DNA from: Elusimicrobia bacterium UBA5214
GTDB lineage: Bacteria; Elusimicrobiota; UBA5214
Direction: 5' to 3'
DNA length: 64,000 nt
Assembly (NCBI GenBank): GCA_002412545.1
Contig: DHVG01000001.1
Coordinates: 206,766-270,765, forward strand
The notes beneath the pieces are model-generated. The model was not told the DNA's origin. It searched no databases and saw only the letters and a program-made list of their open reading frames with translations. Below are positions 65 to 48,958 of the stretch, piece by piece. Numbering within the stretch: the stretch's first letter is position 1; every line of letters begins with the position of its first letter. A program made the position numbers and the translations under genes.

Positions 65-93
65 TTGACAGTTTTTTATATAGGATGTATAAT
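65..93 (+). promoter_or_regulatory. Consensus sigma70-type promoter: TTGACA (65-70), 17-bp spacer, TATAAT (88-93), upstream of the MerR-like gene
   Basis: Exact -35 and -10 hexamers with 17-bp spacing, read directly from the sequence; the ATG of the downstream ORF lies about 65 nt further on. Confidence 0.5.
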
Positions 94-160: not shown

Positions 161-445
161 ATGAAAAACAAAAACACGGTGGTTATTCCTTTCACTCTCG
201 GTGCGGTATCCAAAAAAACAAGTGTGCCGAAAGGTACCCTGCGTTATTGGCAAGATAGACATAATCTTTTTAAACCTATTGCTCACGATGAACAAGGTAA
301 TCCTCTTTATTCTCCAGAAGTTGTAGAAAGGATAAAAAAAATTAAGTTATTTCGTAATTCTGGTCTTGAGATAGGTGCAGTGAAAAATAGACTTCGGATA
401 ATAGGAAATTCCAAGAGAAAAAAACGCTGGGTTGAAAAAGGGTAA
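161..445 (+). CDS. MerR-family HTH transcriptional regulator (short form, about 94 aa; the track ORF 65..445 probably starts at the internal ATG 161)
   Basis: The segment TSVPKGTLRYWQDRHNLFKP...YSPEVVERIKKIKLFRNSGLEI matches the MerR HTH signature. The stop overlaps the next start (ATGA at 445), which implies translational coupling. Confidence 0.6.
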   Translation: MKNKNTVVIPFTLGAVSKKTSVPKGTLRYWQDRHNLFKPIAHDEQGNPLYSPEVVERIKKIKLFRNSGLEIGAVKNRLRIIGNSKRKKRWVEKG

Positions 446-2280
446 TGATTAAAACTATTATCTCAATCATTTCAATTCTTTTATTATTTTGTGAGAGTGG
501 AAGTCCACAAAGAGAAAGTATTGGAATTGGTAAAAAAATTGCCGACCTTGAACTGAATAGGAGAGAAGAAGCAATTGGTGAAAAAATAAAAAACCGTATA
601 GAAGAAACTCTCAATCGTTACTATTCAAGAGAAAGTTATATAGTCCAGGTATACGTATCTTTAGAAAAAATGCTTCCCACAGAACCTCCTAAGCTTAGTA
701 AGAAAGTTAAAGTTGAAAAGGAAACATTTCTTCCTGGTTTACCTGCGTTGCCACTTGAAGAGTCATCACCTGAATTGAAAGATATCCTTGTTGACCAGTT
801 GACTTTTTCACCTAACTTCAGAATATTATCTATTATTGTAAATATTCTCTTAGATGAAAGAAAATTTTCCACTGCTGATGTAGATTTTGTTAAAAAAGTT
901 ATCCCCACTTGTGTTGTTTTAGATGAAACGCGTGGGGATACTTTGAATGTTAAAGTTATGCCTTTCCCCCCATCAATTACTTCATTAATAGAAAAAAAAG
1001 TGAAAGAAGAAGTAGTTTCTTCAGAAAAAGAAATTTCTATTTTTGTTCGCTATTTTCCCTATTTACAAATTGGGTTGGGTATATTGGTTTTATTGCTTTT
1101 AGGAATAATGCTGATGGAAATCACAAGTTTAAAAAAGAGTAAAAAGGTACCCGAAGAAATATTACCTACGGGTGTTTATCTTAGACCTACGGGCACACCC
1201 CCTCTTCAAGCACCACCTGCACCAGTTGGGATACAGACTGAATTACCTAAATTAGTGACTGTTGAAGAAGGTAAAACTCTTTTTTATGAATTGAGGCAAC
1301 TTATGGTAACTACTCTTGTAGGTAATCCGGAGATTGTATCAGAAATATTCCACCGTTGGGTTGAACAGGACAAAGAAAACGGCATAAAATCAGTTGCCAA
1401 TTTTTTGAAAGCGACCGAACCCCGACTTATAGAATTACTTGCTCCTCGCTGGGAAGAAGAATTGAGAACAAAGGTTGAATCTGCTATGGGTCAAATAACT
1501 ACTATTGAAAAAGACAGCGTAATAGAAACTTTTAAAAAATTTAGAGAAGAATTTCAAAAAGAACAAGAAATAACAACAACTAGTCAACATAAAGAAGATA
1601 TATTTTATTTTTTAAAACAGTTGGAACCGCATCAAGTTCTTCATATTATTAAAGATGAACCCGTAGGAATAATTGCTATTGCCTTAGCGATGGCAAGACC
1701 TGATGTTTCTACATTAGTTATGAAAGAGTTACCGCAAGAAATATCCGCAAGAATTCCTGTGGAAATGGGTAAACTTAAAAAAATACCCTTAACTACTCTT
1801 TCAGAAATTGCTGATAGATTATCAAAAAAAGCACTACAGATTGAAAGTCTGAAGTATGTATCTACTGACGGTACTAAAGCGATAATTGATTTACTTGAAC
1901 ATTCTTCACCGGAAATGGAAAAACAAATCTTGGCTAATATTGTCCATCAAGATCTTAAACTTGCTGAAGAAATAAAAAAACAATATCTTACTTTTGATGA
2001 TTTAACTCTCGTTATGGACAAACCTTTATCTGAAGTATTGAGAACTATTGATGCTGAGGTCATTGTCAAAATGTTAGTTGGTTCACCAGTTGAAATAAAA
2101 GAAAAAATTTTAGCCAATTTACCCAGTAGGATGAAAACTATTGTTACTGACGGTCTTTCTGCAATTAAAGAAGAAATTTCTTCTGAAGAAATACAGGAAG
2201 CACGAAAAGTGTTATTGGCGAAATTGCGCGATTTAGCAAAAAGTGGTAAGCTTGAGTTGACTAAAAAAATAATTTCATAG
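445..2280 (+). CDS. Membrane protein with a FliF-like N-terminal part (signal/TM, about 180-aa periplasmic domain, second TM) fused to FliG-like middle and C-terminal torque domains
   Basis: Hydrophobic N-terminus and a TM helix at about aa 206-226 (GLGILVLLLLGIMLMEI). A periplasmic stretch ending in ...DETRGDTLNVKVMPF resembles the FliF/YscJ ring-motif C-terminus. Residues about 380-440 (EPHQVLHIIKDEPVGIIAIALAMARPDV...LPQEISARI) resemble the FliG middle domain. Residues about 500-611 (YLTFDDLTLVMDKPLSEVLRTID...ILANLPSRMKTIV...EEIQEARKVLLAKLRDLAKSGKLEL) match the FliG C-terminal domain pattern. Confidence 0.6.
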   Translation: MIKTIISIISILLLFCESGSPQRESIGIGKKIADLELNRREEAIGEKIKNRIEETLNRYYSRESYIVQVYVSLEKMLPTEPPKLSKKVKVEKETFLPGLPALPLEESSPELKDILVDQLTFSPNFRILSIIVNILLDERKFSTADVDFVKKVIPTCVVLDETRGDTLNVKVMPFPPSITSLIEKKVKEEVVSSEKEISIFVRYFPYLQIGLGILVLLLLGIMLMEITSLKKSKKVPEEILPTGVYLRPTGTPPLQAPPAPVGIQTELPKLVTVEEGKTLFYELRQLMVTTLVGNPEIVSEIFHRWVEQDKENGIKSVANFLKATEPRLIELLAPRWEEELRTKVESAMGQITTIEKDSVIETFKKFREEFQKEQEITTTSQHKEDIFYFLKQLEPHQVLHIIKDEPVGIIAIALAMARPDVSTLVMKELPQEISARIPVEMGKLKKIPLTTLSEIADRLSKKALQIESLKYVSTDGTKAIIDLLEHSSPEMEKQILANIVHQDLKLAEEIKKQYLTFDDLTLVMDKPLSEVLRTIDAEVIVKMLVGSPVEIKEKILANLPSRMKTIVTDGLSAIKEEISSEEIQEARKVLLAKLRDLAKSGKLELTKKIIS

Positions 2281-2320: not shown

Positions 2321-3394
2321 ATGCTAAAAGAGAAGAAAATTAATAAATTGGTAATATTTCTTTTTTTGTTGACGGTTTTAACCAGTGCTCAATTCATTTA
2401 TGCAGAAGGATTGGCTGAGCAAGAAGTAATTGACCTTTTAGATATTTCTTTAAGAAACTTAACTCAGGAGTTGAAAACTCTGAATCCAGAAATTAGGAAG
2501 GTTCTTTTCTATTCGTTAAAAGGAGACCGGAGAAACATTTCTCAGCCGCTTCTTCGGCAACTACAAGGTAAAATAGAATCCACCTTTGTCACTGCTGGAC
2601 TTAAATTAGTTTATGCACCGGGATTTAAACCGATACAAATTGGTGTAAGTGAAGAGCGTGTTTCTTTAGTTTCCGGATTTAAAGACATTGATGAAATGAG
2701 AGAAACAGCGGCGAAACTAAAATTAGATGGTTTTATGGAAGGAGAACTATTTCTTGCCGAAAGAAGACTTCATTTGAATATAAGAATTTTTGATGCGGAG
2801 ACAATGGCTATTGTTTGGAGTAAAGATTTCAGCAATATTCTTCCTACGCCACCACCTAAACCGCGTACAACTGGAATAGATATTGGTTTTGGAGGAGCAG
2901 GTCTAAGTTTGAGTAGAACTGTAGATTCACAAGACCTTTCTGTGCCTTCTTTTGTTTATTATTATACTGCTGACTTGAGGATTACTCAGACATCCGAATT
3001 GATTAAAAACTCAAGGTATATATTTGGTGGACAGATATTTTATCTTTCTGAAGGGGTGGAAAGCAAAAAGATTAGTTTGGTTTCTGGCAAGTTAGTTGGT
3101 GGTGGATTCGCTTTGCGTGGAGGTATTTATTTATCTTTGATTAAAGCACCAACTAAATCTAAGAATAGAAGTTGGTTAGCAACGGAACTTAGTCTAGGTA
3201 AAATATTCAGTCCGGGTGTTTCACAAACAGCTTTTTTTCTTGGTGTAGAGTGTGACATTACCGAGGATATGTCGTCTGCCTTTAGGGTTGCTTATGTTAT
3301 CCCGAAAGAAATTACTGTAGAAACAAGTAAGAAAGTATCTGCAGGTGGAATTTATTATGAAATATCGTTACTGCGTTTCAATTTTAACCCTTAG
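2321..3394 (+). CDS. Secreted, probably outer-membrane-associated protein: CsgG/FlgP/LpoB-like N-domain followed by a beta-strand-rich C-terminal half
   Basis: Signal peptide (LVIFLFLLTVLTSAQFIYAEG). The N-domain pattern (ERVSLVSGF...DEMRETAAKLKLDGFMEGELFLAERRLHLNIRIFDAETMAIVWS) is the same fold-level motif found in the lipoprotein at 47209..48567. The C-terminal half alternates hydrophobic residues and is Gly/Ser-rich, as expected for a beta-barrel or sheet. Confidence 0.45.
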   Translation: MLKEKKINKLVIFLFLLTVLTSAQFIYAEGLAEQEVIDLLDISLRNLTQELKTLNPEIRKVLFYSLKGDRRNISQPLLRQLQGKIESTFVTAGLKLVYAPGFKPIQIGVSEERVSLVSGFKDIDEMRETAAKLKLDGFMEGELFLAERRLHLNIRIFDAETMAIVWSKDFSNILPTPPPKPRTTGIDIGFGGAGLSLSRTVDSQDLSVPSFVYYYTADLRITQTSELIKNSRYIFGGQIFYLSEGVESKKISLVSGKLVGGGFALRGGIYLSLIKAPTKSKNRSWLATELSLGKIFSPGVSQTAFFLGVECDITEDMSSAFRVAYVIPKEITVETSKKVSAGGIYYEISLLRFNFNP

Positions 3395-4475
3395 TACTAT
3401 TGTTTTTTTCTCGGTGAACTTTGTCAAAGATAGACGTATTTTTGCGGCAGAAGCTCCAGCAGTGAGTATTTCTACCCCGGTTACTCCCGGGATACGCGCA
3501 ACAGAAAGTGAATTGAAATATTTTGCAATTCAAGAGGAAATTCGTCAAAAGTATGAAATACGTCTTGCTGAACAAGAAGAAAAAACAAGAAAACTAGAAT
3601 TATTACTTACAGCGTTATCTAACCTTGTGGAACAAGCGATTGCAGAAAAAATGGAATTCGCCAAGAAAATAGAATCACTCTCTGAACAATTAGAAAAGTT
3701 GAGCCAGAGAAAAGATATTTCCCAACCTACACCTGTGGAGAGTGCCCCGGCAAAAAAAGTTGAAAAAACAAAAGTTACCCCGACAAAAAAAGTTGAAGAA
3801 CCACTAAAAAAAGAAATTAGCGAAGGTACAACAAAACAGATGAAAATTGATGAAAAAAGTGGAAAATCTACTTCAGTAGACCAGTATGTTAAAGTCAGAG
3901 TAAAAGATGGAGACCAGGAAGTAGAAATGGTTCTGGACCCCACTTATACTGATATGGCATTTGAATTTCAAGGCAAGAAGCGTCCTACTGAGTTAAAGAT
4001 AGAACCTGAAACAGTGGAAGAAGTACTCCCACCTACAAAAAGCGATATTCAGGTAAAAAAAAGTATTGAAAAAATAATGAAAAAAATTGACGAACTTAGT
4101 TACGATATAGCCGAATTGAAAAGTGAAAAAGGACCACTGCTAGCTGTTCCACCCAGTGAGAAGGGTGTCCCTGTTCCTCCAAGTGAACCCAAAAAAGCGG
4201 AATTGCCTGAATTACCTAAGGATGTTACTGAAGATGTCTTAGTAAGTATTCATCAAGCACAAAAACTATTTTACGCAGGGAAACATCAAGATGCACTGCG
4301 TGAAGTGCGAAAATCGCTTTCTAAAAAGGAAACTGCCTTAGGTTATGCATTATTAGGTTCTATTTACTTTACGATGGGTGACCTTGATTCGGCTCTGTCC
4401 TCCTGGGATGTTGCATTGGAAATAGACCCACTGATGACTGAAGTATCTGAAATATTAGAAAAATACAAAAGATAA
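3357..4475 (+). CDS. Periplasmic coiled-coil protein with a Lys/Pro-rich linker and C-terminal TPR (CpoB/MotX-like architecture); start uncertain (3345 or 3357)
   Basis: N-terminal hydrophobic signal (CVSILTLSTIVFFSV), long heptad-like coiled coil (EQEEKTRKLELLLTALSNLVEQAIAEKMEFAKKIESLSEQLEKL), and C-terminal TPR (ALGYALLGSIYFTMGDLDSALSSWDVALEIDP). Confidence 0.45.
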   Translation: MKYRYCVSILTLSTIVFFSVNFVKDRRIFAAEAPAVSISTPVTPGIRATESELKYFAIQEEIRQKYEIRLAEQEEKTRKLELLLTALSNLVEQAIAEKMEFAKKIESLSEQLEKLSQRKDISQPTPVESAPAKKVEKTKVTPTKKVEEPLKKEISEGTTKQMKIDEKSGKSTSVDQYVKVRVKDGDQEVEMVLDPTYTDMAFEFQGKKRPTELKIEPETVEEVLPPTKSDIQVKKSIEKIMKKIDELSYDIAELKSEKGPLLAVPPSEKGVPVPPSEPKKAELPELPKDVTEDVLVSIHQAQKLFYAGKHQDALREVRKSLSKKETALGYALLGSIYFTMGDLDSALSSWDVALEIDPLMTEVSEILEKYKR

Positions 4476-4479
4476 ATAA

Positions 4480-5394
4480 ATGGGCACTTTTATTGGTATT
4501 CTCATCGGTTTAGGTTTGACTGTTTATTCAGTGTATGCAAGTTGGGAAATTGCGGCATCGACCAAACAAACGCTTACTCTTGCTGCAGCATTCATTAATA
4601 TACCGGGTTTTCTATTAGTAATCGGTGGTGTGATTGCAGCGACCCTTGTATCTTTTCCTCTAAAGGATGTCACGGAAAGTTTTGTTTCTTTTTTCCGAGT
4701 ATTTTTCCGAAAAGAACATAGTTTTATTAAGCGAATAAATGATATTGCTGAAACTTCAGCACTTTATACTAAAAATGGTATTTCGGCATTAGAAGAAAAA
4801 GTGAAAAATAGTGAGATGTCTTTTTATCGTGATGCGTTAGAAATGTTTGTCAATGGTTACAAAAAAGAAGAAATAGTAAAAGTTTGCGAAGATATGATAA
4901 ACGCAAGATATGAACGTGAAGTTATTCAAGCAGATGTATTTAAAGTTATTGCACGAAGTGCCCCTGCTTTTGGTATGATTGGCACGGTTGTTGGTATGAT
5001 TGGTATGTTTGGGAAACTTGCAGAAAAATTCCGTTTAGAAGCAACTATTGGTGAAGCGACTACCGCAGCGGGGTCTGATGCTGCTGGGTTACAATTTACC
5101 ATATTTTTTCTAATGATGGTTGCTCTGACGACAACTTTTTATGGTTTGATTATTGCGAATTTGGTATTTGGTCCAATGGCAAACAAAATTGTCAATCGCA
5201 GTGATTCTACCAGAGCATACTTGTATATGACTCTTAAGGGGGTATTACTCATTTGTGATAAGAGGCACCCCCTATACATCAAAGATATTCTCATCGGGTA
5301 TTTACCCCCAAAATACAGAAAAGAGTTATACAAAGAATTGGAAAAAGAAACATCGCCAGCACGAGTGCCTACACCAAAACCAGCTAAGAAATAA
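4480..5394 (+). CDS. motA: MotA/PomA-family proton-channel stator subunit (4 TM helices, large TM2-TM3 cytoplasmic loop)
   Basis: Two TM helices, then an about 100-aa cytoplasmic loop, then TM3/TM4 carrying the MotA motif APAFGMIGTVVGMIGMF. This topology differs from ExbB/TolQ (3 TM). Confidence 0.7.
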   Translation: MGTFIGILIGLGLTVYSVYASWEIAASTKQTLTLAAAFINIPGFLLVIGGVIAATLVSFPLKDVTESFVSFFRVFFRKEHSFIKRINDIAETSALYTKNGISALEEKVKNSEMSFYRDALEMFVNGYKKEEIVKVCEDMINARYEREVIQADVFKVIARSAPAFGMIGTVVGMIGMFGKLAEKFRLEATIGEATTAAGSDAAGLQFTIFFLMMVALTTTFYGLIIANLVFGPMANKIVNRSDSTRAYLYMTLKGVLLICDKRHPLYIKDILIGYLPPKYRKELYKELEKETSPARVPTPKPAKK

Positions 5395-5408: not shown

Positions 5409-6341
5409 ATGGAAAACAATCTTGAGCGATTTTCAGAGTCTAATAAACTCAATAAAAAAGAAGATGAAGGTGAATTATGGATACTCTCATACGGTGACCT
5501 AGTCACGTTGTTAGCATGTTTTTTTGTCTTTCTTGTTGGTTTTTCTACCCTTGACTTAAGAGGTTTGTCTAAAACATTGTTCCCCATAGAAACACCCCCA
5601 GAAAAAATAAAACTTGCTTTAGACGAATTTATCAAGGCACGTAAAGAGTTGATTGGTAGTACAAGAACAGAAATACAAAAGGAGGGTGTAATGTTTGAAA
5701 TATATAACGATGCTCTATTATTCCCGGCTGGTAGCGCACAACTTAAAGAAGGTGCAAAAATTTTATTAAAAGACCTATCAAAATTAATGCAGTCTAATCC
5801 ATTCATTAAAGGGCAATCGGTAAGTATAGAAGGACATACTGATTGTGTGCCGATATCCGGTAAACTTGCGGCTATTTATCCTTCTAACTGGGAACTTTCC
5901 GCTGCACGTGCAGCGAGTGTGGCTAGATACCTTATTGAAGAATGTAATTTGGAAGATGACCGTTTTATGGTCTTAGGATTTTCCGACACAAAACCAAGAT
6001 TAAATCCGGATAATCCCAATAAACCGATAAGTGAAAACCGAAGAGTAATTTTTAAGTTTAAGGATTATAAATTCAAAGCACCAAGTTGGAGGAAACTGGT
6101 TCCAAAAAGAACATATAAGACCATTCCTTTAGAGACACAGACGATGCTACCCACAACAACCAGTAACAACAAAAATACTGCACCGCAAACAAAACTTCTC
6201 TGGGCTGCAGCAGAAAAGTTAAGGCAGGAAGGAAAGTATACTGAGGCAAAAGTTTTATATTTGAAAATTCTTCAGGTAGTTCCGAATCATTCACCTTCAA
6301 TAAGAAAACTTCAATTGATTGCAGAAAGTACAAAAAAGTAA
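5409..6341 (+). CDS. motB: MotB-family stator subunit with OmpA-like peptidoglycan-binding domain and C-terminal TPR-like extension
   Basis: Single N-terminal TM with the conserved Asp (ILSYGDLVTLLACFFVFLV). OmpA/MotB motif NWELSAARAASVARYL. C-terminal helical repeat LYLKILQVVPNH. Confidence 0.75.
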   Translation: MENNLERFSESNKLNKKEDEGELWILSYGDLVTLLACFFVFLVGFSTLDLRGLSKTLFPIETPPEKIKLALDEFIKARKELIGSTRTEIQKEGVMFEIYNDALLFPAGSAQLKEGAKILLKDLSKLMQSNPFIKGQSVSIEGHTDCVPISGKLAAIYPSNWELSAARAASVARYLIEECNLEDDRFMVLGFSDTKPRLNPDNPNKPISENRRVIFKFKDYKFKAPSWRKLVPKRTYKTIPLETQTMLPTTTSNNKNTAPQTKLLWAAAEKLRQEGKYTEAKVLYLKILQVVPNHSPSIRKLQLIAESTKK

Positions 6342-6350
6342 AATATTTCC

Positions 6351-7373
6351 TTAATTATCTGCAAAGACAACACAGTTTCTTCCTATTTTCTTTGCCACAT
6401 AAAGTCTCTTGTCAGCTAATTCCACTAAACTTTCAAGATTCTTTCCTTCATCTGGGTATGAACTAACTCCAATTGATACGGTTACTTTACCTAAAGGTTG
6501 TCTCTTACCACCTGGATAGTCAGTATTTTCAATATTTCTCCGCACATCTTCAATAATTGCGATTGACTTTTCTCTTGGTAAATCGTAAAAAGCAATAGCA
6601 AATTCTTCACCGCCATAACGTCCGTAGATGCTATTTTCTTCTCTTATTGTTAACCTCATAACTTCAGCAGTAATTTTAATTGCTTGATTACCGGCTTGAT
6701 GTCCATTGTTATCGTTATAAACTTTAAAATAGTCAATATCAATAATCGCAAAAATTAGAGTATTTACTCCCGATTTCAATATTTCAGTAATTGTGCGCTG
6801 AACATATCCCGAGTTATAGAGATTAGTTAGAGGGTCAGTGATTGCATTTTCGTAAGTGCGTGCATTATGGATAGAAATAGCTACCACATTTGCTAATGCT
6901 TCAATAATTTTCAAATCCTGTGAGTTGAAGAAACCACTTCCGCTTCGTTTATTCAGAATTTCGATTACTCCTAAAAGCCTGTCTGCAAAAACTAACGGTA
7001 CCGCAATCATTGATTTAGTTTTAAATCCGGTTTTCAGGTCAACCCATTTCAAATGTTGTGTAGTATTCCCCACATTGTTCACAATGACTGACTTTAATGT
7101 TTCCGCTACCTTGCCTGCTATTCCCTTACCTAAGGGGATTCTGACCTCTTTTAGTTCATTTGCTTTTTCTCCTAAAGCAACATCAAAATAAAGTTCTTTA
7201 CTTAATTCATCATAAAGCAAAACTGATGCTGCTTCACAGTTTAAAATCTTCTTTGTATTTTCAAGTATCTTAGGTAATAGGTCTTTAAGATTTAATGTCG
7301 AAGAGAATTCTTTTGCTGAGTTAAATAGTAATGTTAAATACTTTTTGGGTAATTCAATAGTTCTTGTTCTCAT
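6351..7373 (-). CDS. GAF domain-GGDEF diguanylate cyclase
   Basis: N-terminal GAF-like region. GG(E)EF active site RYGGEEFAIAF with upstream DxLT..N..Y motifs. Confidence 0.8.
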   Translation of the reverse strand: MRTRTIELPKKYLTLLFNSAKEFSSTLNLKDLLPKILENTKKILNCEAASVLLYDELSKELYFDVALGEKANELKEVRIPLGKGIAGKVAETLKSVIVNNVGNTTQHLKWVDLKTGFKTKSMIAVPLVFADRLLGVIEILNKRSGSGFFNSQDLKIIEALANVVAISIHNARTYENAITDPLTNLYNSGYVQRTITEILKSGVNTLIFAIIDIDYFKVYNDNNGHQAGNQAIKITAEVMRLTIREENSIYGRYGGEEFAIAFYDLPREKSIAIIEDVRRNIENTDYPGGKRQPLGKVTVSIGVSSYPDEGKNLESLVELADKRLYVAKKIGRNCVVFADN

Positions 7374-9951: not shown

Positions 9952-11673
9952 TCAAACAGAATCCCACAATTGCAACTGATAAAGTCGCCTATAAGTATGA
10001 CATTTCTCCAGTAATTCTTCATGTTTTCCTGAAGCAACAATCACACCCCGGTCAAGAACAATAATCTTATTTGCTTTTTTTATCGTTGAAAGACGGTGAG
10101 CAATAACTAAAGTTGTCCGGTTTTCCATCAGACGGTCTAATGCTTCGTAGACCAGTTTTTCCGTTTCCGGGTCAAGAGCAGAAGTTGCTTCATCAAGAAT
10201 CAGAATTGGTGGGTTTTTTAGTACTGCCCGGGCAATGGCAATCCGTTGTCTCTCCCCCCCGGAGAGCATTATCCCCCGCTCTCCGATGATTGTATTATAT
10301 CCTTGTGGAAGTGTAAGAATAAAATCGTGGACATTGGCAATTTTTGCCGCTTGGAAAATTTCGTTTTCAGTTGCTTCTGGTTTAGCGTAGGCAATATTGT
10401 TCCTTACGGTGTTGTTAAAAAGGATTACCTCCTGCATCACTATCCCGATTTGTTCTCTTAGAGATTTTAAATTTAGTTCACCAGTTTCATCCCCGTCAAT
10501 ATAAATTTTACCTTTTTGCGGAATATAGAATCTGGGAAGTAAATTTACTAAAGTAGTTTTTCCTGCCCCCGAAGGTCCAACTAAAGCGACAATTTCTCCT
10601 TGTTTGACGGTTAGATTGATATCTTGCAGTACATAATCTCTGCCATTATAGGCAAATCCCACATTTTGATAAAGAATTTCTTCTTTGAAAGGAGGTAAAA
10701 TTTTTGCCTCTTTTGGTTCTAACACAGTAGGTTTTTCGTCAAGGAGAGAAAAAATACGTTCACTGGCGGCGAGTGCTTGTTGTAAAATAGGGTTAAAATT
10801 AGAGAAATTTCTAATTGGTTGGTAAGTGGAGAGAACTGCACCGAGAAAAGCAAAAAATGCACCTGGTTTCCAGAAACCCATAATTACATCATAACCACCA
10901 TAAAGAAGGATAAAACTCGCCGCAATTGCTCCTAAGAATTCCATCACCGGACTGGACAACACTTCAACTCTAATGAAACGCACAATAATCTTGAAAAAAC
11001 TATCATTTTCTTTACGGAAATGTTCAATTTCTTTTTCTTCTTGACCGAATGACTTTACTACACTTATCCCGAAGACCAATTCTTGAATCAAAGCGTAAAG
11101 GTCAGACATCTTTTCCTGTCCTAAACGGCTTATCTTGCGCATTTTTCGGGAAAATTCTCTTAAAGGATATAGAGAAAGAGGAAAGACAACCAAACTGATC
11201 AGCGCAAATTTCCAATGTAAGTAAAAAAGTAAACCGACCAAAAAAATTAGAGTTAAACTATCGCGCACCAAAGTTGCTGGAATATTAATTAAAGCCGTTT
11301 CTAAAAGTTTTACATCATTAGTCAAACGAGAAATAATTCTTCCGGTAGAACTCTTATCATAAAAATCAAAAGAAAGTGTCTGTAAATGGGTAAAAAGTTC
11401 ATTACGGATATCTCGGGTAATTTTCTGAGCGATATAGTTCATCAAATAATTCTGAAAATAAACAAATAAACCCTTAAATAAATAAAGAATCGGAATAATA
11501 ATTACTAACCGAATCAATAGGAGTGAGTTTTTAGCAATCAGAGCATTATCAACTACTGTCTTTAATAACCACATTGATGCGGTAGTTAGACCAGCGACAC
11601 CCGCCATACAAACTAATGCCTGAATGAATTTTATCCGATAAGGATAAAAATATTTAATTAACCGTTTATACAT
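9952..11673 (-). CDS. msbA: ABC exporter with fused permease and ATPase, probably lipid A flippase MsbA
   Basis: Six-TM N-terminal domain plus Walker A (GPSGAGKTT), signature LSGGERQRIAIARA, and Walker B ILILDEATS. Overlaps lpxB in an lpx cluster. Confidence 0.7.
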   Translation of the reverse strand: MYKRLIKYFYPYRIKFIQALVCMAGVAGLTTASMWLLKTVVDNALIAKNSLLLIRLVIIIPILYLFKGLFVYFQNYLMNYIAQKITRDIRNELFTHLQTLSFDFYDKSSTGRIISRLTNDVKLLETALINIPATLVRDSLTLIFLVGLLFYLHWKFALISLVVFPLSLYPLREFSRKMRKISRLGQEKMSDLYALIQELVFGISVVKSFGQEEKEIEHFRKENDSFFKIIVRFIRVEVLSSPVMEFLGAIAASFILLYGGYDVIMGFWKPGAFFAFLGAVLSTYQPIRNFSNFNPILQQALAASERIFSLLDEKPTVLEPKEAKILPPFKEEILYQNVGFAYNGRDYVLQDINLTVKQGEIVALVGPSGAGKTTLVNLLPRFYIPQKGKIYIDGDETGELNLKSLREQIGIVMQEVILFNNTVRNNIAYAKPEATENEIFQAAKIANVHDFILTLPQGYNTIIGERGIMLSGGERQRIAIARAVLKNPPILILDEATSALDPETEKLVYEALDRLMENRTTLVIAHRLSTIKKANKIIVLDRGVIVASGKHEELLEKCHTYRRLYQLQLWDSV

Positions 11674-12800
11674 TTCTTTATTTCTTCAGCGATAAGTTTA
11701 GCAACACCGGGTTGACCTGCCTCCTCGGCAGGACGAGAAGGACTGCCTAATTTTTTACGCAGGTCAATCAATTCTTGATGTATTTTCTGCCATTCTTGCG
11801 GATTATTCAACCAAGATTCAGCTTTTTCTACAATTTTTTCAGTTTTTATTTTATGCTGAATGAATTCGGGAAAAAGATTTTTGCCAGAAATTATATTCAC
11901 CAATCCGATATAAGGAACTTTTACCAAACTGCGCGCAACAAGATAAAAAAACCAGGTCGTTTTGTAAATGATTATCGTCGGAATACCAAGCAGGGCATTT
12001 TCTAAAGTTGCTGTGCCGGAACAGGCAAAAGCAATCCTAAATTTTTTTCGTTCTTCATAATTTTCATCGTTGACTAAAGAAATATCAACCGGACTTGTTT
12101 TCACCATTTCTTGCAAATAATCAATCGGCATATTTTTTGTCCAAGGAAGAAAAAATCTACTCTCCGGAAATTTTTCTTTAATCATTTTAGCAAGGTTAAA
12201 AAGTAAAGGCAAATGTCGAGAAATGACTGATTTACGACTACCCGGGAGAAGACCGATGTGGCAGTTAATAGTTGATAGTTGATGGTTGATAGCAGGAACA
12301 ATATCAAGTAAGGGGTGACCAAAGAAAACCGTATCTACCCCGGCATCTTGATAAATTTCTTCTTCAAAAGGTAAAATTACAATCATTTTATCAATACACC
12401 GGGCTAATTTTTTTACTCTCCCCGGACGGCTTGCCCAGACCTGTGGACTGATATAATAAATTACCGGGATATTCCGTTTTTTTGCTTCCCGGGCAAGATG
12501 AATATTGAACCCGTAGAAATCAATCGGAATTACACAATCCGGTCTTTCTGCATCAAGGAATTTCAGTACTACCTCTTGGAAAATTCTCCGGAAAAAGAAA
12601 TAATTTTTTATACTGTCTCCTAATCCGAATACTGCTAACTCAACTAAATTGTAAAGAAATTGGTCAGAAACCGACGAGAGATGTAAACCACCCAAAGAAG
12701 AAATTTTTATTTCCGGTAAAATTTTTTTCAATTCCTTAACTAAATTTGCACCATGTAAATCCGCTGAAGTGTCACCAGCTACTAACAGAATTTTTTTCAT
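11658..12800 (-). CDS. lpxB: Lipid-A-disaccharide synthase LpxB
   Basis: N-terminal MKKILLVAGDTSADLHGANLVKEL matches the LpxB (GT19) family. Carries an in-frame AGTTGAT heptamer repeat at 12265-12293. Confidence 0.85.
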   Translation of the reverse strand: MKKILLVAGDTSADLHGANLVKELKKILPEIKISSLGGLHLSSVSDQFLYNLVELAVFGLGDSIKNYFFFRRIFQEVVLKFLDAERPDCVIPIDFYGFNIHLAREAKKRNIPVIYYISPQVWASRPGRVKKLARCIDKMIVILPFEEEIYQDAGVDTVFFGHPLLDIVPAINHQLSTINCHIGLLPGSRKSVISRHLPLLFNLAKMIKEKFPESRFFLPWTKNMPIDYLQEMVKTSPVDISLVNDENYEERKKFRIAFACSGTATLENALLGIPTIIIYKTTWFFYLVARSLVKVPYIGLVNIISGKNLFPEFIQHKIKTEKIVEKAESWLNNPQEWQKIHQELIDLRKKLGSPSRPAEEAGQPGVAKLIAEEIKKCING

Positions 12801-13747
12801 TACACTGTTTTGATTTTCTTAAGGATTTCCAAACCAAGTTCTAAAGCGTCACGCCCATGTTCACCGGTGACTAAAGGTTTTTTCCCTTCCTGAACACATT
12901 CAATAAAATGACTTAATTCTTTTTCTAAAGGTTCATATTTTTCTAATTTCGGACTGATTACTTGAATATCTTTAAGGGACTTTACCACGGAGAATTTTTT
13001 TTGATAAATTTTGATTCGTTTTTCTTGATAATCTAAAGAAATATAAGAATCCGGTTGGAATATTCTTATCTTCCGAAAGGGGGCCAGGGAAATACGACTT
13101 GCCGAAAGGTCAGCAACACAACCGTTCTCAAATTTTATTCTTACATTAGCAATGTCCTCATGTTCGCTAAATACCGAAGTTCCCAAAGCATCTAATTCTC
13201 TTATTTTTGAGTCTACCAGAGATAATACGATATCTAAATCATGAATCATCAAATCAAGGACAACACCGATATGACTCACTCGCGGGTCGTAAGGACCAAG
13301 TCGTCTACTCTCAATATATTTTGGTTCGTGGATATACTTTCTTGCGGCGATGACTGCCGGATTAAATCTTTCAATATGTCCAATTTGGAGAATTACATTT
13401 TTTTCTTTTCCTAAATCAAGTATTTCTTCGGCATCTTCAAGATTGTCAGTAATTGGTTTTTCAATTAAACAATGAATTGAATAAGAAATAAAATCTTTAC
13501 TTATCGGGTAATGTGTTGGTGTAGGTGTAGCAATGGTTACGGCATCAACTAAGCCCAAGATTTTTTGGTAATCTGTATAAGATAAAGTGTGATAAAGAGA
13601 GGCGATTTTTTTTGCGCGTTCGGGAAGAATATCAACTACCGCGGTTAGTTCTACATTAGTATTTTTTGAGAGGATACGAGCATGGTGTTGTCCTAATTTT
13701 CCTACACCAATGACTGCTACTTTAAGTTTCTTCATCCTTCGGTTCAC
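12800..13747 (-). CDS. Gfo/Idh/MocA-family NAD-dependent oxidoreductase (lpx-cluster associated)
   Basis: N-terminal Rossmann motif LKVAVIGVGKLGQHHARIL and the EKP motif (CLIEKPIT). Confidence 0.7.
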   Translation of the reverse strand: MNRRMKKLKVAVIGVGKLGQHHARILSKNTNVELTAVVDILPERAKKIASLYHTLSYTDYQKILGLVDAVTIATPTPTHYPISKDFISYSIHCLIEKPITDNLEDAEEILDLGKEKNVILQIGHIERFNPAVIAARKYIHEPKYIESRRLGPYDPRVSHIGVVLDLMIHDLDIVLSLVDSKIRELDALGTSVFSEHEDIANVRIKFENGCVADLSASRISLAPFRKIRIFQPDSYISLDYQEKRIKIYQKKFSVVKSLKDIQVISPKLEKYEPLEKELSHFIECVQEGKKPLVTGEHGRDALELGLEILKKIKTV

Positions 13748-13792
13748 TCAGGATGACCCTTCAGGGTGAACCCTGAATTTGTTGAAGGGTCA

Positions 13793-14605
13793 TTAGATAC
13801 ACACAACCGATAAATTATTCTTTTCTGCTTCTTTTAGAAATTTTTCTTTCTCCAGAATAAGTGTTTTTTTTGCTTCACAAACTAAAACTCGTGCTTTTAC
13901 TTTTTTTAAAATTTTTAGTGTCTTGAGACCAACTACCGGAGGGTCAAAACGCATTTCCTGTTTTGGTCTCGCAACTTTGACTACAATAAGACCATTGTTA
14001 TTTATTCTACCCGCACGTTCAATACATTTATCTGTTCCTTCCATTGCCTCAACGGCAATTACCGCTTTATCTTTGACGACTACAGTTTGACCAATATCTA
14101 AACCGGCGAGCATTTTAGCGATTTTGTAGCCGAATTTGATATCTGCCCATTCTCTTTCAGTTGGTTCTAACTTAGTCAATGTCCCACCTGAAGCAAGAAA
14201 AGGTTTAAGAAAAACCGTCGGAGAGATAACTTCAATTCCTTTTCCCGCAAGAATCTTTGTTGCTGCTTTAATTAAGGTTGTTGCTTTTTTATCTTTTAGA
14301 TTATTCCACAATTCTTTCGTTTTTTGGTCAAATTGCCAAGGGTTAAAGATATAACTATGTTTAATTGCACCTAACAGCACTACCTTTTTTACGTTTTCTT
14401 TTTGTAAAAAATGGGCAATTTCTTCCCAACGGTCTAATTCTGCCCAATGGATTGAGTCAACTACTTTGGTTAATCTCGGGTCAGTAATACCCTTGAAGCC
14501 AATGGCACTGATTTCACATTTATTCTTCACTTTCTGAGCAAAAAGGAGCGGCAATTTACCTTCCCCAGCAATTAAACCAATGAAATTTGTTGGTGAATTA
14601 GCCAT
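13793..14605 (-). CDS. lpxI: UDP-2,3-diacylglucosamine hydrolase LpxI (DUF1009 family)
   Basis: N-terminal IGLIAGEGKLPLLFA is typical of LpxI. Size about 270 aa. Sits between lpxA and lpxB. Confidence 0.65.
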   Translation of the reverse strand: MANSPTNFIGLIAGEGKLPLLFAQKVKNKCEISAIGFKGITDPRLTKVVDSIHWAELDRWEEIAHFLQKENVKKVVLLGAIKHSYIFNPWQFDQKTKELWNNLKDKKATTLIKAATKILAGKGIEVISPTVFLKPFLASGGTLTKLEPTEREWADIKFGYKIAKMLAGLDIGQTVVVKDKAVIAVEAMEGTDKCIERAGRINNNGLIVVKVARPKQEMRFDPPVVGLKTLKILKKVKARVLVCEAKKTLILEKEKFLKEAEKNNLSVVCI

Positions 14606-14611
14606 TTATTT

Positions 14612-15379
14612 TTAGCGACAGAAACCACGGTTACTTGTTTTAAGAAAATCAACAAGATATTTTACTTCTCGGTTATTCAACTGTTGTTCTATTTTTTCTA
14701 CCGCTTCTTTGAACATTAATTTTGAACGGAAAAGAATCCGATATGCTTTTTTTAAAGCGATAATTGTCTCTCGGCTATATCCCCGTCTGTGTAAACCAAT
14801 TACGTTCAGTCCGTAAAGTTTCACCCGGTCACCACAAGCTTGCATGAATGGTGGCACATCTAAAGTAACCATCGCCCCGCCACCAAGCATTACTAATTTT
14901 CCAATCCGGACAAACTGATGTACGGCAACTAATCCGCCAAGTACTGCATAATCCCCAACTTGCACATGTCCACCTAAAGTAGCGTTATTTGCCATAATTA
15001 CTTCGTCACCGATTACGCAATCATGAGCAATATGTGCGTAAGCCATCAAAAAACAGCGTTTACCAATTTTTGTTTCACCTTTCATTGCTGTTCCGCGGTT
15101 TATGGTTACATATTCACGAATAAGTGTTTCATCAGCGATTGTAAGACGTGTTTTTTCGTTACGATATTTCCAATCCTGCGGTGGTGTCCCCAGAATTGCA
15201 CCCGTATAAATTTGACAATTTTCACCAATTTGTGTTTCACCTTCAATATGCACATAAGGACCAATCTTTGTCCCCCGTCCAATTTTTACATTCTCAGAAA
15301 TTACCACATAGGGACCAATTTCTACATCCGGTCCAATTTGTGTTTCCGGATGAACAATTGCCGTTGGATGAATTTTCAT
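14612..15379 (-). CDS. lpxA: UDP-N-acetylglucosamine O-acyltransferase LpxA (the track ORF extends to 15406; the likely true start is MKIHPTAIVHP at 15379)
   Basis: Left-handed beta-helix hexapeptide repeats and the N-terminal IHPTAIV motif. An SD-like GGAAGAAAGAG sits upstream of the internal ATG. Confidence 0.85.
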   Translation of the reverse strand: MKIHPTAIVHPETQIGPDVEIGPYVVISENVKIGRGTKIGPYVHIEGETQIGENCQIYTGAILGTPPQDWKYRNEKTRLTIADETLIREYVTINRGTAMKGETKIGKRCFLMAYAHIAHDCVIGDEVIMANNATLGGHVQVGDYAVLGGLVAVHQFVRIGKLVMLGGGAMVTLDVPPFMQACGDRVKLYGLNVIGLHRRGYSRETIIALKKAYRILFRSKLMFKEAVEKIEQQLNNREVKYLVDFLKTSNRGFCR

Positions 15380-15390
15380 CTCTTTCTTCC

Positions 15391-15537
15391 CGCACCTTTC
15401 AGACATCCAACGATTTTTTTAAGTTAGTTATGAATAAGTTAGAAAATATTAAAAGGTAAAAATCAGTATCTAAAAGCACGCAGAGGATAACTTTATCGTT
15501 GGGAAGAAACTAAAACTGACTATGTCTGAAAGGTGCG
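15391..15537. promoter_or_regulatory. Long-range perfect 16-nt inverted repeat (CGCACCTTTCAGACAT at 15391-15406 and ATGTCTGAAAGGTGCG at 15522-15537) bracketing the lpxC/fabZ-lpxA intergenic region
   Basis: Read directly from the sequence. The first arm covers the SD region of lpxA on the minus-strand transcript. Confidence 0.5.
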
Positions 15538-15549
15538 AGATCTCCTCCT

Positions 15550-16848
15550 TTATTTATTTACTAAGTAGAACATAAATTCTGCTTCCGCAACTAAGCGACC
15601 GTTAACATAAGCATTTCCTTTAACTTTGCCACCTTTTTCTCGTGCTCGTAGAACTTCAATTTGTAATTCTAAAAGGTCACCCGGATATACCGGTTGACGA
15701 AATTTTGCATCATTAATACTCATAAAGTAAGCAAGTTTTTCACTATGTTCAGGATGAGCAAGGAATAATACACAGGAAGTTTGTGCCATTGCTTCCACAA
15801 CTAAGACACCAGGCATAATTGGTCTTCCCGGGAAATGTCCCTGGAAAAAGTCCTCTTTTCCGGTGAGGTGTTTGTATCCAACGGCTTTTATTCGGTTCGT
15901 AATTGTTACTTGGTCAAGAAAAAGAAAAGGATACCGATGGGGGATAACTTTTTTTATTTCTTCATGGTTTAAAGTTCGTCCTTCTACTTGGGGAAAGTCA
16001 ATTTTTTTCGTCTGTAAAGTTTCAGTAAGTAATTTGGTAAAGGCAATATTGTGACTATGTCCACAACGAATAGCAATAATCTCCGCTTTCAGAGGCCCCC
16101 CGAGAAGATACAAATCACCAAGTAAATCAAGAATTTTATGACGCACAAATTCATCAGCAAAACGTAAACTTTTTTCTTTATTATGGATACGGTCCATACC
16201 AATTACTACCGCATTATCTAAACTTCCACCCTTTGCTAATCCTTTTTTCTTTAAAGATTCAATTTCATAGTCAAAACAGAAAGTTCTTGCGGAGGATAAC
16301 TCTTTCTTAAAGGTCTCCGCGGTAATCAAAAAAGATGCATATTGGCTTTTTAACATTGGATGATGATAGTCAATAGTGCAGGAAATTCTCAAATTTTCAC
16401 TTGGGAAAGCAATCAATTCAGTCTCATCTTGGACATAATGCAAAGGTTGAAGAAGAGTAAAATATTTTTTTTCTGCTTCTTGTTCAATAAGACCAGCTTT
16501 TTCCAAAATCTGCACGAAAGGTAATACTGAACCATCAGCAACCGGTGGTTCATTAGTATTAATTTCAATGATTAAATTATCGATTCCTAAACCATAAAAA
16601 GTTGCTAAAAGATGTTCCGTAGTGTGAATACGAACATCATCGTTACCGAGGGTAGTTCCCCGAATTACCCCAAGTACATTTTTGGAGTTCATTTCAATTA
16701 TGGGTTTATCCGGTAAATCTACCCGGATAAATTTTATTCCCGAGTTTACCGGTGCAGGTTTAAAAACTACTGTGCTTAGACTACCTGTATGTAAAGAAAT
16801 ACCCGTATAAGAAATTTCTTTAGCGATAGTTTTTTGTCTTTCACTCAT
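15550..16848 (-). CDS. lpxC-fabZ: Bifunctional LpxC (UDP-3-O-acyl-GlcNAc deacetylase) / FabZ (3-hydroxyacyl-ACP dehydratase) fusion
   Basis: N-terminal LpxC features (YTGISLHTGSLSTVVFKPAP, HHP, HSHN motifs). C-terminal FabZ hot-dog features (HRYPFLFLD...GHFPGRPIMPGVLVVEAMAQ). Confidence 0.85.
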   Translation of the reverse strand: MSERQKTIAKEISYTGISLHTGSLSTVVFKPAPVNSGIKFIRVDLPDKPIIEMNSKNVLGVIRGTTLGNDDVRIHTTEHLLATFYGLGIDNLIIEINTNEPPVADGSVLPFVQILEKAGLIEQEAEKKYFTLLQPLHYVQDETELIAFPSENLRISCTIDYHHPMLKSQYASFLITAETFKKELSSARTFCFDYEIESLKKKGLAKGGSLDNAVVIGMDRIHNKEKSLRFADEFVRHKILDLLGDLYLLGGPLKAEIIAIRCGHSHNIAFTKLLTETLQTKKIDFPQVEGRTLNHEEIKKVIPHRYPFLFLDQVTITNRIKAVGYKHLTGKEDFFQGHFPGRPIMPGVLVVEAMAQTSCVLFLAHPEHSEKLAYFMSINDAKFRQPVYPGDLLELQIEVLRAREKGGKVKGNAYVNGRLVAEAEFMFYLVNK

Positions 16849-17894
16849 TTTTCTTTTTTTCTCCCTAAATCTTTTGACGAAGTTGGTCTCTTTCGCAGTT
16901 TACGAAAATATTGATATAGTTCAGGTAAGCGGTCAATCAATGCTTGAATTCTTAACATTTTACGGTGTTCTCTTGCTGGATAACCGGAAACTATTAATCC
17001 GTCAGCGATATTACCGATTACCCCTGCTTGGGCAGCTACTTTTACTCCTTGACCAATAGAGATGTGGTCAGCTACACCTGCCTGCCCGCCAAAAAATACA
17101 TTATTTCCAATTTTTGTTGAACCAGCAATACCAACCTGCCCGGCAAGAACACAATTTTCGCCAATTTCTACATTATGTCCGATTTGTACTAAATTATCAA
17201 TTTTTGTCCCTGAACCAATTTTTGTTTTACCAACTGTAGCACGGTCAATAGTACAGTTTGCACCGATTTCTACACTGTTGCCAATTTCTACTCTACCAAT
17301 TTGTGGTATTTTTTCCTGTTTACCTTCAACACTTAAGAAACCAAACCCATCGCTACCAATGACTGTACCGGAATGAATAATTACATTATCACCGATATCC
17401 GTTTTTTCCCGGATACACACTCGTGAGTAAATTAGACAATTTTTACCAATTTTTGTTTCTTTACCGATATAACAAAGTGGATAGACAATTGTTCCTTTAC
17501 CAATTTCTGTGTTATCTTCAATAACCGTATAAGCGCCAAGCGTAACTTCTTTGTCTAATTTTACATTTTTGCCAATTAATGCTGTGGGATGAATACCTTG
17601 GGGATGAATAACCAAAGCGGATTCTTCATTAACTAAATTTAAAACTTTGACAAAAGCAAGATAAGGATTTTTAACTTTGATTAAATTTTTTTCTGGGAGG
17701 ACGATATTTTCAGAAACAATTACTGCCCCGGCTTTTGTCTTCTTTAATTGGGGTAAATACTTGATATCCGAAAGAAAGGAAATTTCTTCTTTTCTTGCCT
17801 CGGACAATCCAGATACACCCTTAATAAGAATATTCTCATTACCTTCTATTTTTCCTTGAACAAGTTTTGCTATTTCTTTTAATTTTAATTCCAT
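16845..17894 (-). CDS. lpxD: UDP-3-O-acylglucosamine N-acyltransferase LpxD
   Basis: N-terminal LpxD-like domain followed by extended hexapeptide-repeat beta-helix. Overlaps lpxC-fabZ. Confidence 0.85.
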   Translation of the reverse strand: MELKLKEIAKLVQGKIEGNENILIKGVSGLSEARKEEISFLSDIKYLPQLKKTKAGAVIVSENIVLPEKNLIKVKNPYLAFVKVLNLVNEESALVIHPQGIHPTALIGKNVKLDKEVTLGAYTVIEDNTEIGKGTIVYPLCYIGKETKIGKNCLIYSRVCIREKTDIGDNVIIHSGTVIGSDGFGFLSVEGKQEKIPQIGRVEIGNSVEIGANCTIDRATVGKTKIGSGTKIDNLVQIGHNVEIGENCVLAGQVGIAGSTKIGNNVFFGGQAGVADHISIGQGVKVAAQAGVIGNIADGLIVSGYPAREHRKMLRIQALIDRLPELYQYFRKLRKRPTSSKDLGRKKEK

Positions 17895-17895
17895 A

Positions 17896-20148: not shown

Positions 20149-20216
20149 ATTTTACTTTACTTTCCGTTGTATTTTAATAAAAATTTTGAAAAAACACAAC
20201 ATTGAAACAAATATTC

Positions 20217-27474: not shown

Positions 27475-27490
27475 TTTTGATTTACCCCCA

Positions 27491-28600: not shown

Positions 28601-28632
28601 AGGAACTCCTTTTGCGTTTTCGCGTTATTGGG

Positions 28633-48835: not shown

Positions 48836-48958
48836 TCAATTGTCAATACAGGAAACAGTAATATAATAATCTTTCTCAAGAAGCCTTAAAGGGAATCCTG
48901 TCTGTGCAGATGCTCTTTCAAGAATCTTAAGAAATTCCTCTTTATCGTTATGAAGCAT
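48836..48958 (-). pseudogene. abiEii: Truncated AbiEii/AbiGii-family nucleotidyltransferase toxin remnant (40 codons, then stop)
   Basis: Minus-strand ORF MLHNDKEEFLKILERASAQTGFPLRLLEKDYYITVSCIDN* carries the AbiEii N-terminal EKDY(W/Y)(V/I)T signature. Its ATG overlaps the abiEi stop by 11 nt (ATGCTTCATAA). The reading frame collapses after about 40 codons. Confidence 0.5.

Follow-up and report, generated by a model that had tools for sequence, protein, structure and literature searches.

The only role known for FliG is that of the torque-receiving ring in the flagellar rotor, and the flagellar-type MotAB complex is likewise known only as the flagellar stator. Among natural proteins that join FliF to FliG, the closest published case is the fusion of Chlamydiaceae (Bergeron 2016, PMC4768692), a chain of about 330 amino acids (aa) with ring-building motif (RBM) 2 plus one further RBM-like region and a cytoplasmic part that resembles only the FliG middle domain. 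Its carriers are not thought to be flagellated, the chlamydial flagellar genes listed are those for FliF, FliL and FlhA only, and the fusion has been discussed as a possible partner of the injectisome (PMC4768692). Salmonella FliF–FliG fusions made in the laboratory (Francis 1992; Thomas 2001) assemble and rotate, in the account that PMC4768692 gives in citing them. Here we describe a natural head-to-tail FliF–FliG fusion gene, found at positions 445–2280 of a 64,000-nucleotide (nt) stretch of contig DHVG01000001.1 (positions 206,766 to 270,765, forward strand) from Elusimicrobia bacterium UBA5214; this whole stretch is referred to below as the window. A full-text literature search returned no description of this fusion family, the nearest being the chlamydial fusion. 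With moderate confidence, we read the protein as the rotor subunit of a self-contained five-gene module that encodes a flagellum-independent rotor–stator machine.

Compared with the flagellar rotor core (Salmonella and Vibrio structures 6scn, 8z5v, 8z4d and 8umd), the fusion protein shares the predicted RBM3 fold, the 1:1 logic of FliF to FliG, the succession of transmembrane (TM) helix, candidate cytoplasmic FliG-binding region, probable FliG N-terminal domain and FliG middle and C-terminal domains, and the equivalent of the torque-helix residue Arg281. The accompanying MotA likewise has four TM helices, a large cytoplasmic domain and both prolines, and MotB has the Asp, the plug and the OmpA domain. 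In contrast to that core, the locus encodes one polypeptide and not two, without RBM1 or RBM2 and with a 49-aa loop bearing an LPGLP motif in place of the β-collar; the equivalents of EHPQR, Asp289, Lys264, Arg297 and MotA Arg90 are not kept; and the neighbourhood has no genes for export, rod, hook, filament or switch, barrel/LpoB-like and tetratricopeptide-repeat (TPR) partners being encoded instead. The chlamydial fusion is likewise a natural single chain with a shortened periplasmic region, whereas the window protein is 611 aa long, has only RBM3, carries the FliG middle domain, the torque domain and probably the N-terminal domain too, and belongs to a family that is always linked to MotAB. 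The engineered Salmonella fusions and the Vibrio fusion (8z4d, 8z4g), as far as the cited accounts describe them, have the same order of parts and show that a covalent chain can form a ring, but they are laboratory constructs with full-length FliF in complete flagella.

A reduced FliF-like anchor and a probably complete FliG in one polypeptide

The original prediction placed an open reading frame (ORF) at 445–2280, and it is present exactly so, on the + strand with an ATG start. Its product runs from a signal or TM1 segment through a periplasmic domain, TM2 and a linker to FliG, and the parts to which we refer below are these:

445..2280, + strand: FliF(RBM3)–FliG fusion gene, 611 aa, ATG start
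451..501, + strand: N-terminal hydrophobic segment, aa 3–19, signal peptide or TM1 (hydropathy)
529..972, + strand: periplasmic FliF-RBM3-like ring-building domain, aa 29–176, with a near-invariant RGD...V..FP at its end
670..816, + strand: low-confidence insert of 49 aa at the FliF β-collar position, aa 76–124 (predicted local distance difference test score, pLDDT, 50–58)
1057..1125, + strand: TM2, aa ~205–227, followed by SLKKSKK (hydropathy and family charge counts)
1276..1374, + strand: conserved helix pair, aa 278–310, consensus FYELRQLMVTTLVGNP..S.EIFK.W, candidate equivalent of the FliF tail
1381..1599, + strand: probable FliG N-terminal domain, aa ~313–385 (alignments to 3hjl, NF004260 and 8z4d_1)
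1603..1854, + strand: FliG middle domain, aa 387–470 (Pfam FliG_M, alignment to 1lkv)
1939..2259, + strand: FliG C-terminal torque domain, aa 499–605 (Pfam FliG_C, alignment to Salmonella FliG 8umd_B)

The FliG half is the more readily recognized. Pfam FliG_C (PF01706) matches aa 499–605 (6.9e-23; 81 bits, cut-off 23.3) and FliG_M (PF14841) matches aa 395–467 (3.7e-9; 37.1 bits, cut-off 25), so that this side of the proposed profile check came out clearly. The FliF side did so only in part: YscJ_FliF_C (PF08345) aligns over aa 124–174 below its cut-off (0.0072; 17 bits, cut-off 23.8), and the Pfam scan of the fusion protein gave no match to PF01514 (YscJ_FliF, the RBM1/RBM2 region) at E≤1. The YscJ_FliF_C alignment spans the RGD...V..FP motif, with which a periplasmic domain of about 180 aa had been predicted to close. 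Taken together, profile, structure and topology back the claim that a reduced FliF-like anchor and a cytoplasmic FliG with its torque domain are joined in one polypeptide.

The nearest solved structures in a Protein Data Bank (PDB) search are the FliG proteins of T. maritima (1lkv, 1.3e-18), Aquifex, Helicobacter and Salmonella, over a range of 1.3e-18 to 2e-10, and databases label members of the family 'FliG C-terminal domain-containing protein', 'FliG-like protein' or 'flagellar motor switch protein FliG'. The fliG model TIGR00207 aligns to aa 375–603 (5.6e-26), with a score that misses the equivalog level (91.7 bits, cut-off 226.7), as does that of NF004260 (35, cut-off 550). Because the FliG equivalog threshold is not reached, PF01514 is missing, and EHPQR and the genomic context depart from those of a flagellar FliG, the protein should be classed neither with orthodox FliG nor with orthodox FliF, although its way of working is very probably that of the rotor core which the two form.

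The periplasmic domain and its topology

An AlphaFold monomer model of aa 28–211, with 23 family members in the input alignment, has a mean pLDDT of 78 and a core above 90, and runs as helix, strand, the 49-aa low-confidence insert, strand, helix and strand. As modelled, this is a ring-building motif whose insertion sits where FliF has its β-collar. Foldseek gave 16 matches to the model at E≤1e-3, all of them FliF RBM3/S-ring chains. In a separate structure comparison all other chains, those with the ring-building motifs of CdsD, SpoIIIAH, PrgH, EscJ, PrgK and SpoIIIAG among them, score no higher than 7.8. The predicted fold is that of the S-ring motif RBM3. Within the fusion protein there is no sign of RBM1 or RBM2, the periplasmic region being one domain only. 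The β-collar of FliF RBM3 is not seen in the monomer model, which has one short helix in the 49-aa insert, and a short collar may assemble only in the oligomer.

The most constant residues of this domain lie in the insert and at its end. Among 122 family members, with a median identity of 24% to the window protein and used for all residue frequencies given here, the near-invariant LPGLP motif (aa 96–100) within the insert keeps P97 in 119 and G98 in 117, D165 of the RGD motif is kept in 121, and P175 of the FP motif in 117.

Hydropathy marks hydrophobic segments at aa 1–19 and about 205–227, on either side of the periplasmic region, and an N-terminal hydrophobic segment is found in 115 of 123 fused family members. 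In the same 123 proteins the 15 residues after TM2 hold 3.8 Lys plus Arg on average and the 15 before it 1.2; the count is higher after TM2 in 114 members and lower in one. Because of this positive-inside bias around TM2, the FliF-like domain is assigned to the periplasm and FliG to the cytoplasm, in keeping with the cytoplasmic FliG of the original prediction, and no topology with FliG in the periplasm emerged. That prediction had also supposed a torque domain held in place without an MS-ring scaffold, which is probably wrong: since what remains of the periplasmic part is RBM3, the motif that forms the S-ring, the fusion protein most likely builds a reduced MS-like ring of its own.

The FliG domains and the torque helix

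FliG_C of the window protein aligns over its full length with FliG_C of 1lkv, 3hjl and 8umd. Residues 40–327 of full-length A. aeolicus FliG (3hjl) align with aa 312–605, and positions 46–316 of NF004260 with aa 312–587. When a profile of aa 272–392 was searched against the PDB, the sole match was the engineered Vibrio FliF–FliG chain 8z4d_1 (E 0.0042), in which profile positions 42–105 cover Vibrio FliG_N. Both the middle and the C-terminal domain that had been predicted were found, but by these alignments FliG_N is probably there as well, which would make FliG complete. The Pfam model FliG_N (PF14842) itself lands on aa 411–500 with 26.9 bits, a cross-match to the middle region. We had also considered aa 280–310 (RQLMVTTLVGNP...) as the first FliG_N helices, an assignment dropped once the PDB profile search put FliG_N at about 313–385.

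The segment right before FliG_N, FYELRQLMVTTLVGNPEIVSEIFHRW, is weakly like the FliG-binding C-terminal tail of FliF (VRALVANEPELAAQVVKNWM). Profile positions 17–39 (VttlvGnPelsseilkkW), corresponding to aa 288–310, cover these last FliF residues in the 8z4d_1 alignment with only 4.7 bits, and a tail-only profile gave nothing significant against the PDB. W305 of the helix pair is kept in 108 of the 122 members. It is suggestive, and only that, that the pair at aa 278–310 is the counterpart of FliF's FliG-binding tail; should this match to the tail hold, one would see in the gene a simple read-through fusion of adjacent fliF and fliG from which RBM1, RBM2 and the collar were then deleted.

Set against Salmonella FliG, the torque-helix charges are partly retained in the window protein: Arg281 and Asp288 are kept as R562 and D569, whereas Asp289 is replaced by G570, Lys264 by V545 and Arg297 by S579. 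Across the family the equivalent of Arg281 is Arg in 109 members and Lys in 11, that of Asp288 is Ser in 50, Asp in 33 and Glu in 10, that of Asp289 is Glu in 41, and those of Lys264 and Arg297 are uncharged. In the 1lkv/FliG alignment the EHPQ of EHPQR corresponds to E405-P-V-G, and E440 stands at the position of Arg160; family-wide the Glu is kept in 100 of 122 members and the other positions vary, the Arg160 equivalent being Glu in 50, Ser in 18 and Lys in 13. Judged from these alignments, the FliM-binding EHPQR motif is lost.

A flagellar-type stator and two envelope partners in the same operon

The fusion gene is followed on the same strand by genes for an outer-membrane barrel protein, a periplasmic TPR protein, MotA and MotB, with successive intergenic gaps of 40, −50, 4 and 14 nt:

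2321..3394, + strand: secreted protein of 357 aa, LpoB-like periplasmic domain and C-terminal 8-stranded outer-membrane β-barrel
3345..4475, + strand: periplasmic TPR protein of 376 aa, overlapping the preceding gene (Pfam TPR_2, 5.1e-6)
4480..5394, + strand: MotA-type stator A subunit of 304 aa, 4 TM helices and a large cytoplasmic domain (Pfam MotA_ExbB, 1.5e-19)
5409..6341, + strand: MotB-type stator B subunit of 310 aa, TM helix, plug, OmpA-like peptidoglycan-binding domain and TPR extension

The stator is of flagellar type. NCBIfam models of MotP, MotA and PomA score the A subunit at 1e-34 to 1e-31, compared with 0.007 for TolQ, although it falls short of the equivalog cut-offs (119 vs 394). 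C. sporogenes MotA (6ysf) aligns over aa 37–193 and 210–285 (9.8e-26, PDB). The equivalents of Pro173 and Pro222 (P162, P232) are invariant in six aligned MotA sequences, and the Glu98 equivalent is Glu or Asp in eight of the nine loci described below. In the flagellar motor, Glu98 of MotA pairs with Arg281 of FliG, and Arg90 with Asp288/289 (PMC7564593, PMC12505986). The B subunit matches Pfam MotB_plug (PF13677, 2.5e-9) and OmpA (PF00691, 1.9e-15), and its ion-binding TM Asp (D30) is present in all nine loci. By sequence, the stator has every feature required for ion-coupled rotation. In the window MotA the periplasmic loop between TM3 and TM4 is also longer by about 19 aa (aa ~187–205), an insertion missing from five homologues, and the C-terminal TPR extension of MotB is present in the window and in one other locus (L003), the other MotB proteins being without it.

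No Pfam family is assigned to the 357-aa barrel protein, in which aa 137–172 show a faint match to Pfam FlgT_M (0.053). The 376-aa protein is laid out as a signal peptide, a coiled-coil/Pro-Lys-rich spacer, a conserved QYVKVRVKD..QEVE..LDP.Y.D motif and a C-terminal TPR region that is likewise conserved. Its homologues in two loci (L001 and L008) carry a lipobox, the lipoprotein signal. An assignment of this protein as a TonB/TolA-like membrane transducer was rejected, as lipoprotein signals are present in two homologues and the family shows no conserved TM motif.

Conservation of the module and size of the family

The identical five-gene order recurs in nine non-redundant loci (the window, L001, L002, L003, L005, L006, L008, L013 and L014; L004 holds the genes of L003 again on a second contig and is counted once), with unrelated flanks and with gene junctions that are short or overlapping. 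The fusion protein is 24–43% identical across the nine loci, and all five proteins diverge in parallel, at 15–43% identity to those of the window. The source records are Elusimicrobiota/Endomicrobiales and Fibrobacterota metagenome-assembled genomes, the remaining loci being untyped metagenome contigs. Around the fusion gene in the UBA5214 contig, no flagellar gene beyond the five-gene cluster was found from −10 kb to +64 kb, and the other loci are likewise free of them for up to ±10 kb around the cluster (less at contig ends).

When 1.84 billion representative proteins were scored with a profile built on the periplasmic domain, 365 clusters (50% identity) came up at E≤1e-3 and, at the stricter E≤1e-10, 130. 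In 135 of 176 proteins examined, one or more FliG domains are joined to the periplasmic domain, and full-length fused proteins number at least 123, mostly representatives of 50%-identity clusters. With LPGLP, RGD and FP near-invariant, the alignments indicate that the family is under purifying selection.

The periplasmic domain also occurs in two other architectures, seen in P0088 (L009, 3633–4601), P0094, P0140, P0159 and P0163; both are uncharacterised families. One is that of LysM–RBM–TM proteins from Bacteroidales, about 300 aa long and with a peptidoglycan-binding LysM domain, next to which lie only a small TPR gene and no MotAB. In the other, lipoproteins bear two to four RBM repeats and end in a TPR tail.

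Genomic surroundings in the window

Two further features precede the operon:

65..93, + strand: putative sigma-70-type promoter, TTGACA-17-TATAAT, 12/12 consensus matches, ahead of the operon (consensus match only)
161..445, + strand: MerR-family helix-turn-helix regulator, 94 aa from ATG 161 (Pfam MerR_1, 6.2e-14)

The merR-like stop codon, TAA at 443–445, overlaps the ATG of the fusion gene (TAATG). This gene heads the operon in the window genome only and is not kept upstream in the other loci. The promoter coincides with a listed TTG start at 65 for the merR-like gene, whose real start is probably ATG 161.

The 10 kb upstream hold type IV pilus genes on the opposite strand, divergent from the operon (L010, 1–8767): PilM, prepilin peptidase, pilin, PilC, PilT, PilB and a Wzy_C/TPR protein, an adjacency missing in the other loci. 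Downstream, a GAF-GGDEF diguanylate cyclase gene (6351–7373, −) converges on motB with a 9-nt gap, and a PilZ gene lies about 4 kb upstream of the cluster in L002, so that a link to cyclic di-GMP is possible.

Farther along, the window holds an outer-membrane biogenesis block (11658–24881, −) of lpxB, a GFO/IDH/MocA-family oxidoreductase gene, lpxI, lpxA, a fused lpxC–fabZ (432 aa), lpxD, bamA and a gene for a 1554-aa TamB-like protein, which confirms a diderm organism that makes lipopolysaccharide. It is followed by a trio of clpC, mcsB (arginine kinase) and an mcsA-like gene (UVR motif; 25003–29169, −), an arrangement best known from Firmicutes. A prfB (release factor 2, RF2) frame lacks its N-terminus (33907–35038, −), and a 24-aa ORF at 34964–35038 (MMLKEWEEKSNLFKEKLDKFRRCL*) resembles the start of RF2 before a programmed +1 frameshift. 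A 452-aa protein (47209–48567, −) is CsgG-like at its N-terminus (1.9e-10) and also contains multiple TPR repeats, and an AbiEi-type antitoxin domain protein (48948–49748, −) is encoded amid housekeeping genes. Scans of the window for Rfam families and tRNAs found nothing.

Discussion

The combination of profile searches, structure prediction and comparative genomics leads us to posit how a machine of this kind could work. In the inner membrane, RBM3 and the FliG domains would assemble at a 1:1 ratio to give a reduced MS-ring/FliG ring, a proposal that draws on three points: ring-building motifs form rings in all solved cases, FliF and FliG stand 1:1 in solved motors, and engineered FliF–FliG fusions assemble and rotate, as PMC4768692 recounts. 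In a peptidoglycan-anchored MotA5B2, ion flow would then drive MotA round against the torque helix of FliG and so rotate the ring, the conserved contact for torque being that between the equivalents of MotA Glu98 and FliG Arg281. Neither a type III export gate nor a rod or a switch complex could start from such a ring, because RBM1 and RBM2, which surround the gate, the β-collar, which holds the rod, and the FliM-binding EHPQR are all missing. Instead, the LPGLP loop as a collar substitute, the TPR protein and the barrel protein would either pass the motion to the outer envelope or act as a scaffold of the stator, the role that MotX/MotY/FlgT or PflA/PflB have in elaborate flagellar motors. 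Candidate outputs are surface motility, movement of surface proteins or the energising of an outer-membrane process. More tentatively, and with less assurance than we place in the rotor–stator reading itself, we suggest an autonomous MotAB-spun ring whose rotation does work at the cell surface, with the LPGLP loop, the TPR protein and the barrel protein as the coupling parts, and with it a new class of ion-driven envelope machine in Elusimicrobiota and Fibrobacterota. A further extension of this idea, which we regard as very unlikely, is that the module descends from a rotor–stator unit older than the recruitment of type III export and is not a reduced flagellum.

Several points weigh against this proposal. 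Ring formation, rotation and output are inferred, and the AlphaFold models are of monomers. The roles given to the barrel and TPR proteins are guesses from fold and position. Of the two canonical rotor–stator charge pairs, rotor and stator both retain just one: at the MotA Arg90 position no locus has a basic residue (Thr, Ser, Ala or Gln in nine of nine loci, with a Lys directly after it in the window and L005), and the FliG Asp288 equivalent is Asp or Glu in only 43 of 122 members. The similarity to the FliF tail is by itself statistically insignificant, given its bit score and the empty tail-only search. Finally, the scan covered the neighbourhoods of the clusters, so a flagellar regulon could sit elsewhere in these genomes; some Fibrobacterota are flagellated, and a genome survey of Elusimicrobia (bioRxiv 10.1101/765248) does not discuss motility.

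The last point bears directly on whether the fusion might serve as the rotor of a genuine, very divergent flagellum. FliG, the FliF RBM3 and MotAB of flagellar and not Tol/Exb type are all flagellar parts, the sequence analysed covers only about 84 kb of the source genome, and engineered FliF–FliG fusions function in Salmonella flagella, according to what PMC4768692 relates of them. The genes for export gate, rod, hook, filament and FliM/N would then lie elsewhere in the genome, an arrangement that we consider quite unlikely. The parts of FliF around the export gate and rod, RBM1/RBM2 and the β-collar, are missing and PF01514 is unmatched; a 49-aa loop stands in place of the collar, which in FliF comprises about 110 aa; the FliM-binding EHPQR is lost; and TIGR00207 reaches 92 against an equivalog cut-off of 227. 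Moreover, the constant partners in nine loci are the barrel and TPR proteins, never fliE, fliH, fliI, fliM, fliN or flg genes. These same partners, acquired although they are not flagellar, make it scarcely credible that the locus is a decaying, functionless remnant of a lost flagellum. Non-motile species can hold partial flagellar gene sets, but here the five ORFs are intact at every locus, their order is kept across two phyla down to 24% identity, and LPGLP, RGD, W305, R562 and the MotB Asp are near-invariant.

A different possibility is that the membrane-tethered FliG does not rotate at all, but is a platform on which MotAB docks and is activated by the opening of its channel. The module would then be a device for regulated ion flux or for signalling in the envelope, or would hold envelope proteins in place without movement. 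A plug-bearing MotB needs a partner to open it, a role that has been described for the rotor (PMC12505986), and the conservation of a single charge pair would suit a platform of this kind. So would the LysM relatives, in which the same periplasmic domain without FliG suggests static rings within the domain family, and the closeness of a GGDEF gene in the window and of a PilZ gene in L002. We nevertheless find a static platform unlikely, since the full N-M-C FliG and the torque-helix Arg are under strong selection, a MotA pentamer engaged with FliG must turn its partner or stall, and none of the five proteins has a signalling output domain. A match of MotB to ZorB models (4e-15, PADLOC) raised the further idea of a Zorya-type, MotAB-based anti-phage system, to which we give practically no weight and which we reject: MotA, the fusion and both partner proteins are unmatched in PADLOC, no ZorC/D-like gene was found, and the ZorB match reflects generic MotB/OmpA similarity. 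The flagellum-independent rotor–stator machine thus remains the reading that we prefer.

Such a machine would stand beside two groups of known systems. Periplasmic stator scaffolds are formed by MotX/MotY/FlgT in Vibrio and by PflA/PflB/FlgP in Campylobacter; they comprise TPR/Sel1-repeat proteins and outer-membrane-associated proteins like LpoB or the FlgT middle domain that are encoded with the stator, as here. In sequence, the barrel and TPR partners are not significantly similar to these scaffolds, and we know of neither the barrel fusion nor the QYVKVRVKD motif from MotX/MotY/FlgT or PflA/PflB/FlgP. The second group comprises ExbBD-TonB, TolQR-TolA-Pal, GldLM of the type IX secretion system, AglRQS-Glt and ZorAB, envelope machines powered by 5:2 ion-driven motors (compare bioRxiv 10.1101/2024.03.12.584617). 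They too have an inner-membrane motor encoded with TPR or coiled-coil and barrel proteins and no filament. Contrasting with the present module, however, these machines use Exb-, Tol- or Gld-type A subunits, exert force through a B-subunit-like partner and are not known to have a FliG ring, whereas the stator here is flagellar-type and peptidoglycan-anchored and its force acceptor is FliG.

If our reading is true, the rotor–stator engine of the flagellum would be usable outside the flagellum, with the interface between rotor and stator kept, the parts that export and hold the filament discarded, and outer-envelope partners gained. The fusion protein would then offer structural and biophysical work a naturally minimal rotor, with a fixed 1:1 ratio of FliF to FliG and no switch complex, and would bear on the evolutionary assembly of the flagellar motor. 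The module would also give concrete content to the many non-motile genomes that retain rotor genes (PMC12199754), and may account for surface behaviours in Elusimicrobiota and Fibrobacterota, phyla with few cultivated members.

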